Of a stretch of 64,000 nt of DNA, positions 16,183-59,685 are shown one piece after another. The stretch spans positions 160,001 through 224,000 of the forward strand of contig JABHQW010000003.1 of NCBI GenBank assembly GCA_018696595.1, given 5' to 3'. The notes beneath the pieces were generated by a model. That model worked only from the letters and a program-made list of their open reading frames with translations. It was not told the DNA's origin and did no database searches. Origin of the DNA: Candidatus Woesearchaeota archaeon. Lineage in GTDB: Archaea; Nanobdellota; Nanobdellia; Woesearchaeales; GW2011-AR9. A program made the translations under genes and the position numbers. Numbering within the stretch: the stretch's first letter is position 1; every line of letters starts with the position of its first letter.

Positions 16183-16259
16183 GGGGCACTACGGCACGGC
16201 GCCTTAGATTTTTTCTCATTTAGTTCGAAAAAATGCGCCTCCATTGGCGGTAGTGCCCC
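16183..16259 (-). ncRNA. Candidate structured RNA, element A (downstream of metG)
   Basis: GC-rich 77 nt with perfect 10-bp closing stem GGGGCACTAC/GTAGTGCCCC and inner stems GGCGC/GCGCC and ATTTTTTC/GAAAAAAT; architecture shared with 59357-59436. Confidence 0.55.
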
Positions 16260-16278: not shown

Positions 16279-18351
16279 TCAATGTACTCTACAACCTTCT
16301 TTAACACCAGAAACAGTAACATCTTCAACTTTAGTGCTTAATTTCTTCTCTTTATAGAAAACATTGCCTTCTTTAACCATCATTTTAACTTTCTTGAAAT
16401 CATCAAATGTAATTTCCTTAGTTTCATTCTCCATTCCAGAAAATTGAACAGAATCACCTAGTTTAGACTTCTCAACATCCAAGATAGCCACATTTTCATG
16501 ATCATCAGCAGCAAAAATCATTCCTTCTGAAAGTTCGCCACGTAATTTAGCAGGTTTCATGTTTGCACAAAAGACAGCTTTCCTACCAACAAGTTCGTCA
16601 ACTTCAAACCATTTCTTCAATCCAGCAACAACTTGTCTCTTTCCAAGCTTTTTACCAAAATCAACTTGCATTAAGTAAAGTGAATCCGCATTAGGGTGAT
16701 CTTTAACTTCTTTTATCTGTCCAACTACCATTTGTAAAGGAAATTTTTCTGCAGTTTCAACAATTTCAACTTTCTCAACCAATTTCTCAACTTTTTTCAG
16801 TTTTCCTTTCCAAGTAAAGCCTAAATCTTTCCATAACACTTTTTTCTCTGATAAAGAAACAAATACTTTATCAGAAAATTCAGGAAGAACCGGACTAACA
16901 AGAATTGCTAAGTTCCTAGCAAGGTTCACACAAAAACCAACCTTGGCTTTGCTTTCAACAGAATCTTTATCTTTCCAAACTTCTGATTTTTGGAAGTAAG
17001 CGTTTCCCAAATCTGCAATTTGTAAAATTTTCTTTACAACAATTTTATAATCTTGTTCAGAATATGACCTTTCAATTTCAGCAAACAATTTCTCAGACTT
17101 TTTAATTAATTCTTTCTCTTCTTTACCGTCAGCAACTTCTTTAACAGCACCATAATTCTTTTCAGCAAAAGTTAATACACGATAACAATAATTCCCTAAG
17201 TTTCCCATGAGAACATTATTAGTTACAGCTTTGAAATCGTTAAGATTCAAATCAATATCAACAATTTTACGATCTAAACTTTGAGCATAGTAAAACCGAA
17301 GTGCTTCTGCAGAATAATCTTTCATAAAGTCTTTCGCGGTAAAGAATGTTCCTCTACTCTTTGACATTTTCTTCCCATTAACATTAACAAAACCGTGCAC
17401 AGTTAGTTTTGGTAAGGGAATACCAACCGCCATTAACATTGCTGGCCAAAATAGGAAGTGAAAATAAGCAATGTCTTTGCCAATAAAATGTTGTACGTTT
17501 CCTTTATACCAATAATCTTTCCAATTCTTTTTCAGATTTTTTGTTGAAGAAATGTATCCAATTGGAGCATCTAACCACACATAAAAATACTTTTTCTCAC
17601 CGGTTTCTTTCTTACTATTTGGAATCTCAAAACCATAATAAGGTTCATCACGAGAAACACACCAATCTTCTAACCCTTTTTTGATCCAGTTGTTTAACCA
17701 ATTTCTCATCTCTGGCTGAATTCCTGATTGTTTATCATTAAACCATTTCTCTAAAGTTTTTGAGAATTTTTTCAATTTGAAAAAGTAATGTTCACTTTCT
17801 TTTTGGATTGGCGTTTTACTGCATAAAGAACATTTGGGATTAATTAAATCAATCCCTTTTAGGATGATACCACAACTCTCACAAATGTCTCCATATTGTT
17901 CTGTGGTTGCGCAATGTGGACAAGTTCCCCTAACGTATCTATCAGGGAGAGACCTCTCACAACTGGAACAATAAATAACATTCATTTTCTTTGTATAAAT
18001 CAGATCCTTCTTTCTCAATTCGCTAAAAAAGTATTCAGCTAATTCTTTATTTTCTTCTGAATCAGTATGATAATAATTGTCAAAACCTATTAAAAAAGAG
18101 GCAAAATCTTTTTGGTGTTCTTTTAGAAACTTTGAAGCAAATTTCTTTGGAGACTCTCCTGCTTTTTTAGCGTTAACTTCAATTGGTGTTCCGTGCATAT
18201 CTGAAGCACAAACATATAATGCATCTTTCCCTAACGATTTTAAGAATCTAGTATAAACGTCTGCTTGAATGTATTCTAAGAGATGACCAATATGAATATT
18301 GCCGTTCGCGTAAGGCAAAGCGGCAGTTACAATTATCTTTTCTTTTGCCAT
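16279..18351 (-). CDS. metG: Methionine--tRNA ligase with C-terminal OB-fold tRNA-binding domain
   Basis: PYANGNIHIGH, KMSKS, Zn-knuckle CxxC pairs, C-terminal Trbp111-like domain (HPNADSL, SEGMI). Confidence 0.97.
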   Translation of the reverse strand: MAKEKIIVTAALPYANGNIHIGHLLEYIQADVYTRFLKSLGKDALYVCASDMHGTPIEVNAKKAGESPKKFASKFLKEHQKDFASFLIGFDNYYHTDSEENKELAEYFFSELRKKDLIYTKKMNVIYCSSCERSLPDRYVRGTCPHCATTEQYGDICESCGIILKGIDLINPKCSLCSKTPIQKESEHYFFKLKKFSKTLEKWFNDKQSGIQPEMRNWLNNWIKKGLEDWCVSRDEPYYGFEIPNSKKETGEKKYFYVWLDAPIGYISSTKNLKKNWKDYWYKGNVQHFIGKDIAYFHFLFWPAMLMAVGIPLPKLTVHGFVNVNGKKMSKSRGTFFTAKDFMKDYSAEALRFYYAQSLDRKIVDIDLNLNDFKAVTNNVLMGNLGNYCYRVLTFAEKNYGAVKEVADGKEEKELIKKSEKLFAEIERSYSEQDYKIVVKKILQIADLGNAYFQKSEVWKDKDSVESKAKVGFCVNLARNLAILVSPVLPEFSDKVFVSLSEKKVLWKDLGFTWKGKLKKVEKLVEKVEIVETAEKFPLQMVVGQIKEVKDHPNADSLYLMQVDFGKKLGKRQVVAGLKKWFEVDELVGRKAVFCANMKPAKLRGELSEGMIFAADDHENVAILDVEKSKLGDSVQFSGMENETKEITFDDFKKVKMMVKEGNVFYKEKKLSTKVEDVTVSGVKEGCRVH

Positions 18352-34320: not shown

Positions 34321-37266
<2,946 letters not shown>

Positions 37267-37428
37267 TCTTGTCTTTGTGTATGGCTCATCAATATGATGT
37301 AATTTCGTGATGGAATTGTGAAACTCTCACTCCATCATATCTTAACCAATAACCGCCAAGAATTAAAATTCTTGAAGATTTATGTTTTGTGCCCTAAAAA
37401 AACTCAATGGATTTTCAGGAACACAAAA

Positions 37429-37504
37429 TGGACCCGTCGGGATTCGAACCCGAGGCCTCCTCCTTGCAAGGGAGGCGCTCTAATCCGGACTGAGCTACGG
37501 GCCC
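37429..37504 (-). tRNA. tRNA-Ala(UGC), CCA not encoded
   Basis: Cloverleaf: acceptor GGGCCCG, anticodon arm CCTCC-CTTGCAA-GGAGG, T-loop TTCGAAT; lies in the 16S-23S spacer. Confidence 0.97.
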
Positions 37505-37546
37505 GGTAATGATTTTACATATGTTCTTTTTTTATAAAAAAAAAAA

Positions 37547-39112
<1,566 letters not shown>

Positions 39113-59319: not shown

Positions 59320-59356
59320 TTGTTTCTAAATTTTTTGTCCGAAGTAATTTCTTTTT

Positions 59357-59436
59357 GTATACTAAAGCCCCGGTGTGTAGTTTACACCGAGGTGGGTACT
59401 CTATAAGAGTACGATGTCCGCCGTGCTTTAGTATAC
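59357..59436 (+). ncRNA. Candidate structured RNA, element B
   Basis: 12-bp closing stem GTATACTAAAGC/GCTTTAGTATAC; arms CGGTGT/ACACCG, GGTGG/CCGCC and GTACTCT/AGAGTAC; GC-rich. Confidence 0.6.
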
Positions 59437-59496: not shown

Positions 59497-59596
59497 CTAG
59501 ACAAGATCTTACGATCAAAGGAAGTTTAACAGTCCCCGAAGGACTAACCAATTGGATTTTCTAAGCTCAACTCCCGTGTTTTCGTATCTTATCTAG
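59497..59596 (-). ncRNA. Candidate ~100-nt rod-like RNA, element C
   Basis: 11-bp closing stem CTAGATAAGAT/ATCTTGTCTAG; AGTCC-TTCG-GGGACT apical hairpin; TTATATA 24 nt upstream. Confidence 0.5.
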
Positions 59597-59685
59597 CATA
59601 ATCTAAGAAAGTAAGAATCTATATAATATTTTCTTACCACTATACTTCAGTAAATTTTATATAAAATCAACAGAATTAAAGGAAA

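Follow-up and report, generated by a model that had tools for sequence, protein, structure and literature searches.

Two structured elements of a Woesearchaeota-type archaeon as probable copies of a hairpin-forming mobile element family

Downstream of metG in a DPANN archaeon of Woesearchaeota type lies a short, GC-rich and strongly folding sequence (element A), and a second one with the same core (element B) stands 43 kb away within the same stretch of 64,000 nt that was analysed here (the window), which raises the question of what a shared, structured, non-coding core is doing behind two genes. We propose that A and B most probably belong to a MITE family, a non-coding and hairpin-forming kind of mobile DNA that is restricted to a single lineage, one GTDB family of Woesearchaeota type. 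On this view A would be a minimal copy, or one without ends, and B a worn one, and the place of both after stop codons is likely incidental. The genome of the window (G000) measures 1.19 Mb, with 32% GC and 97% completeness.

The fold of elements A and B

Element A occupies 16183-16259 on the minus strand, where it comprises a complete core and a 10-bp closing stem, as judged from its sequence, its fold and its match to covariance model R1 (79.7 bits, E 7e-25). The predicted structure has an MFE of -33.5 kcal/mol (z -5.21), equalled by none of 200 shuffles, and takes the shape of a nested hairpin. Inside the closing stem come a mismatched C/C, then the GC/GC step and a 7-nt 5' loop that faces GU; further inwards stands the 5-bp helix GGCGC/GCGCC, topped by an A/U hairpin of 8 bp, with a bulge of 5 nt on the 3' side. 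Along the folding strand, the 5' strand of the closing stem (16250-16259) pairs with 16183-16192 in both the MFE and the centroid structures, and its columns covary across 81 copies. It leads into 16240-16249, which hold the mismatch C, one GC of the GC/GC step and a 5' loop, CAAUGGA, that is conserved by column counts, and from there into the 5' strand of the GGCRC helix (16235-16239, partner 16198-16202). Beyond these come a variable, A/U-rich apical hairpin with a predicted 8-bp stem and 11-nt loop (16208-16234), the 3' bulge CUAAG (16203-16207; columns 135-139 of alignment A2) and finally the 3' strand of the GYGCC helix with the invariant GU, the GC and the mismatch C (16193-16202, again from column counts). 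The element starts 19 nt beyond the stop codon of metG (ORF 16279-18351; Pfam tRNA-synt_1g, E 6e-140).

Element B (59357-59436, plus strand) is a GTATAC-ended variant of the core of A, with an R1 score of 30.3 bits (E 1e-7) and an MFE of -38.5 kcal/mol (z -6.84), and starts 37 nt beyond the stop of a 176-aa ORF that has no Pfam match. Its G-U pairs identify the plus strand as the one that folds, and a 7-bp side hairpin (59371-59389, predicted) replaces most of the 5' loop, turning the nested hairpin into a three-way junction; in two other GTATAC-type copies of this genome (C4:22676-22745 and C5:71032-71108) the side hairpin is shorter and carries a G:C to A:U change. The GGUGG/CCGCC helix of B (59391-59424), which includes one G-U pair, encloses a 7-bp hairpin and the bulge GAUGU, and the invariant GU comes after it. 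The earlier note had written out the minus-strand sequence of A correctly, and folding both elements bore out the common order of parts that it described, asymmetric core included; A and B stand in sense orientation at 19 and 37 nt past their upstream stop codons. Its picture of two elements 43 kb apart is incomplete, these being two of 26 copies in the genome.

Separately, a non-coding stretch of ~135 nt downstream of B (59506-59642) has matches of 73-80% identity in genomes G002, G004 and G018, those in the latter two lying on contigs different from the ones that match the flanking genes. Its minus strand folds better (z -2.6), with a long closing stem, and gives no Rfam match at the gathering cut-off; it is a possible candidate RNA gene.

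The same note had taken the outer and apical stems, unrelated in sequence and still paired, as the sign of a conserved fold, and the family at large supplies abundant compensatory changes. Seventeen copies from G000 aligned well, and RNAalifold returned the structure drawn in that note, with compensatory change at 19/24 pairs. Alignment A2 brings together 81 copies drawn from nine genomes. Its cells are paired in 95.4% of cases, a figure that drops to 34-55% once the partners are shifted by 1-3 columns, and both partners have changed in 519 compensated cells. The GGCRC/GYGCC helix is paired in 100% of cells, its R:Y position being occupied by G:C in 42 copies and by A:U in the other 39, and the apical hairpin shows two-sided changes at all 7 modelled pairs. 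Loop and junction bases are nearly invariant (5' side, GC-C-A-A ... G-A-G-G; 3' side, C-C-G-U-G-C): the final GA of the 5' loop is invariant (G31 in 81/81 copies, A32 in 80/81), C17, A18 and A19 recur in 63-73/81, and C143, C144, G145, U146, G147 and C148 are each found in 80-81/81, while the 3' bulge is mostly constant in length and variable in sequence. Across the 81 copies G-U pairs exceed A-C mismatches by 45:20, which places selection for the fold on a single strand.

This strong covariation, together with the invariant asymmetric loops and the one-strand G-U excess, is what a host small-RNA gene family would be expected to leave, or a cis-acting 3'-UTR or processing element, made as RNA in the service of the cell, for instance to bind a protein or to protect the 3' end of an mRNA. 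Three further observations point the same way: the cores form GC-rich islands in a genome of 32% GC, those of A and B have lasted without recognisable transposon ends, and neither orphan half-cores nor decayed copies occur beyond chance. We nevertheless hold a host RNA or 3'-UTR element to be improbable, given the distribution, turnover and ends of the family described below; inspection of the sequence also showed no promoter-like box at a fixed distance upstream of A.

Two further identities were tried and rejected. T runs of at least 5 on both strands accompany 36/81 copies (44%, against a background of 6%), an enrichment that is not general enough for a bidirectional oligo-T terminator, and the loop ATG from which a small ORF might start is missing in 31/81 copies.

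The compact conserved junction, with its invariant GU opposite a 7-nt loop, also calls to mind a self-cleaving ribozyme, a riboswitch, a K-turn/L7Ae RNA, a tRNA-like RNA or a BHB-spliced intron, but we give this group of readings hardly any credence. A search of the window against Rfam (4227 families) at the gathering cut-off returned rRNAs and tRNA-Ala only, and nine copies searched at E up to 10 gave just two chance-level matches. The earlier note could place the element in no RNA class it knew, and the tRNA, K-turn and BHB readings fail here as well. ARAGORN, run with and without introns, and the tRNA model RF00005 were silent; a T arm is lacking, and the apical loops vary from 3 to 11 nt. 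The 5' loop is similar to the strand that carries the bulge in the K-turn of U4 snRNA. In a K-turn, a bulge of 3 nt precedes sheared G-A and A-G pairs in tandem, but here the A required on the non-bulged strand is U in 80/81 copies, this strand being invariantly GU, and the bulge is 5 nt long or a hairpin. The succession of 5' bulge, helix and 3' bulge is slightly BHB-like; a BHB motif, however, has two 3-nt bulges on opposite strands 4 bp apart, whereas the bulges of the element are of ~5 nt and lie 5-7 pairs apart (5 Watson-Crick and 2 non-canonical). Hammerhead- and pistol-type cores and an ORB-like dyad fail on invariant positions, and the copies are tied to no gene class.

Some observations concern the genome itself. 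The rRNA operon of the window lies on the minus strand at 34325-39112, in the order 16S - tRNA-Ala - 23S, with tRNA-Ala at 37429-37504 and no 5S rRNA called nearby; the GC skew changes sign at ~32-40 kb. Although the genome is 97% complete, only 14-17 tRNA genes were found by ARAGORN or the Rfam tRNA model, and most of its tRNAs must have forms that both tools miss, for example with non-canonical introns or split genes.

Distribution, turnover and placement of the copies

Simple pattern searches of the whole genome turned up about two dozen copies, and the R1 covariance-model search found 26, with relatives elsewhere, confirming that the core of A and B has further homologues. Within the same GTDB family (f1), the core is present in 12 of the 24 genomes searched, at 43, 19, 9, 8, 7, 4, 3, 2, 1, 1, 1 and 1 copies per positive genome. 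R1 found none in the same-genus genome G001 (84% complete), none in 16 other families of the same order and none in ~148 genomes from other families of the class, which makes none in about 165 genomes for all families other than f1 together. So patchy and family-restricted a distribution, ranging from 0 to 43 copies and including a same-genus genome with none, speaks against a host RNA gene. A literature search found no published description of these elements, which would form an undescribed and probably active MITE family of DPANN archaea.

Copies are 70-300 bp long and fall into type 1 (A-like), GTATAC-ended three-way-junction forms (B-like), long forms with an extra inner module, and composites, in which one copy sits within the apex of another, sometimes in opposite orientation. 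The composites of G000 (C3:284075-284210, C4:80700-80835, C5:44845-44978 and C3:349815-349965) and of G002 (L067, L070 and L074) consist of an outer, GTATAC-ended shell whose apex holds an inner type-1 element, and the shell appears as a weak opposite-strand match to the model. Some intact elements of G018 (L061 at C9:5780-6150, L062 and L063) carry 2-4 extra hairpins at the junctions of the same scaffold; such hairpin-laden elements, of 297 and 243 bp, fold at about -100 to -140 kcal/mol, and the extra hairpins represent modular growth via hairpin insertion.

Comparison with the same-genus genomes G001 and G002 reveals turnover of sites. Among 28 copies of G002 whose two flanks are both syntenic to G000, 23 correspond to a spacer that is empty in G000, a degree of non-sharing within one genus that argues against a resident host gene, as does the history of the A and B spacers themselves. 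The spacer downstream of metG is plain, AT-rich and element-free in G001, although it is too diverged to give a base-by-base empty site for A; in G002 it holds a long-type copy on the opposite strand together with 1.2 kb of extra DNA, and the spacer of B is occupied in G002 by two other family members. Four spacers shared by G000 and G002 hold different members, and spacers are therefore re-used by different copies. Chance would, on a rough estimate, produce less than one shared spacer, and the re-use suggests either that some targets are preferred or that copies integrate next to those already resident. At one of the four spacers, the copies at C8:61296-61369 of G000 and C19:924-998 of G002, which belong to different species within the genus and run in the same direction, have nearly identical cores and wholly different closing stems, each fully paired.

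All 26 copies of G000 are intergenic and lie in tandem, convergent and divergent spacers, without association with any class of gene. Of those in tandem spacers, 11/17 are on the strand of the genes and 6/17 on the opposite one. Copies on the strand of the upstream gene start within 60 nt of its stop codon in 12/13 cases, a closeness that a host RNA or 3'-end element would readily account for; the absence of an orientation bias over the whole set counts against such a role. The proposal that A is a 3'-UTR or processing signal is not supported by these comparisons, since spacer types are mixed, orientation is unbiased, the metG site is not conserved, and relatives are bounded by TIRs and TSDs. 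The position just past a stop codon would instead mark where insertions are tolerated and not a link to metG.

Transposon ends and candidate transposases

The ends of the mobile unit are best seen in other genomes of the family. In G018, G014 and G022 the core stands between perfect 14-15 bp TIRs and, at six or more sites, between 8-bp direct repeats whose sequences are unrelated from site to site, and several of the G018 copies share an identical model score of 61.1 bits. G021 has different TIRs, with duplications of 9 and of 10-11 bp in two types, and further TIR types occur in G004 and G012. An intact member consists of TIRs, a short spacer and the central GC-rich fold, and its targets are AT-rich spacers; at least four different shells share the one central fold, which is the best-kept part of the whole. 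TIR- and TSD-bounded cores of this kind are at odds with a host RNA gene. In G000 itself, two copies retain both TIR and TSD. Flank scans recognised neither an outer TIR shell nor a TSD for A, and no TSD was detectable for B; a possible worn left end of the original shell of B (TGTCC..GAAG.TAA, 59326-59356, plus strand) is suggested weakly, by eye, through comparison with intact G018 copies. Its spacing is that of the TIR of intact relatives, while the flanks of B match the TIR at ~9/15 positions on each side, which is not statistically secure.

These features bear equally on an origin as REP/REPIN-like sequences, that is, as single-stranded DNA hairpins copied by an HUH transposase (Y1, of RAYT/IS200 type) that recognises the asymmetric core. 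As in bacterial REPs and REPINs, the hairpins are strand-specific, imperfect and confined to spacers, with conserved extrahelical bases, variable stems, doublets and copy-in-copy nesting, and the re-use of spacers by different members would suit the same mechanism. REP/REPIN sequences, however, have no TIR or TSD and require a RAYT (Y1) transposase, and HUH transposition makes no TSD, whereas the present family has clear TIRs and TSDs of 8-11 bp. Nor is there a GC-skew bias of orientation, agreement with the local skew reaching just 10/26 copies, on which count a replication-linked orientation was also rejected. We regard a REP-like origin as very improbable.

The features found in the family are, by comparison, those of a MITE: its members are shorter than ~500 bp, non-coding and multi-copy, they have TIRs and TSDs, and their insertions are polymorphic. 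Insertion in AT-rich spacers goes with duplication of 8-11 bp of target, and we infer that the family would be moved in trans by a DDE transposase. From its sequence, the GGTCTGTCC-type shell, with an 8-bp TSD, GG tips, CTGT and CA(C)AAA motifs and 14-15 bp IR, looks IS6-like: for the ends of the IS6 family, PMC7986276 gives an 8-bp TSD and an IR of 15-20 bp that is tipped with GG and contains the motifs cTGTt and caaa. The other shells, with TSDs of 9-11 bp and unrelated TIRs, do not fit the IS6/IS26 family. ISfinder lists only two IS6 MITEs, and a structured core is not mentioned for them (PMC7986276).

A transposase with matching ends was not found among the genes searched. No long TIR pairs were detected in G018 and no IS5-type DDE_Tnp_1 (PF01609) genes in five genomes; one IS6-type transposase gene (DDE_Tnp_IS240, PF13610, 300 aa) is present in G021 at L226 (G021:C10:5958-9365), a genome with seven family copies, but it has no clear inverted repeats around it and its ends could not be matched to those of the MITEs. 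MAGs frequently lack assembled IS copies. An exact 15-mer scan of genome contigs for the TIRs gave mostly chance matches in unrelated bacteria.

One core in several shells

Hairpin-forming MITEs are known in prokaryotes, as Correia/NEMIS in Neisseria, ERIC/IRU in enterobacteria, RUP/BOX in pneumococci and, among archaea, SM1-SM4 in Sulfolobus. The present family resembles them in being short, non-coding, multi-copy and intergenic, in its TIRs and TSDs, in its presence or absence between close relatives, in the potential of its whole length to form a hairpin and in its compensatory changes. It differs in that the best-conserved part is not the ends but an asymmetric, strand-specific centre with invariant loop bases, and in that one such centre occurs in at least four shells, in nested copies and in cores that outlast their ends. 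Invariant strand-specific loops and intact end-less cores go beyond the needs of a purely DNA-level DDE transposon; a core that is better kept than the ends, without decayed copies, likewise goes beyond those of a DDE-type MITE; and MITEs do not usually share one core between shells that differ in their TIRs and TSD lengths.

Retaining the MITE family as the preferred reading, we suggest, with low confidence, that the central fold acts in cis, as a module for the element's own benefit. It might, quite tentatively, offer a protein of the host or the transposon a sequence-specific docking site on single-stranded nucleic acid, or, just as tentatively, form a read-through RNA hairpin that would limit damage to neighbouring genes. 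A stronger claim seems rather unlikely to us, namely that the core is a new fold of RNA or single-stranded DNA which binds protein or organises itself, carried as cargo by unrelated MITE shells and selected after loss of the ends, with A and B as functional RNAs that the host may have co-opted.

For the biology of the lineage, a false lead is removed, in that a metG-linked 3'-UTR signal is not supported, and the family adds a record to the little-studied mobile elements of DPANN archaea. The wider puzzle is how one asymmetric, compensatorily maintained fold comes to stand in several different transposon shells. Should the fold prove to bind a protein or to work as RNA, MITEs would be seen to carry a new kind of cargo, and the fold would give access to transposition or RNA biology in uncultivated archaea.
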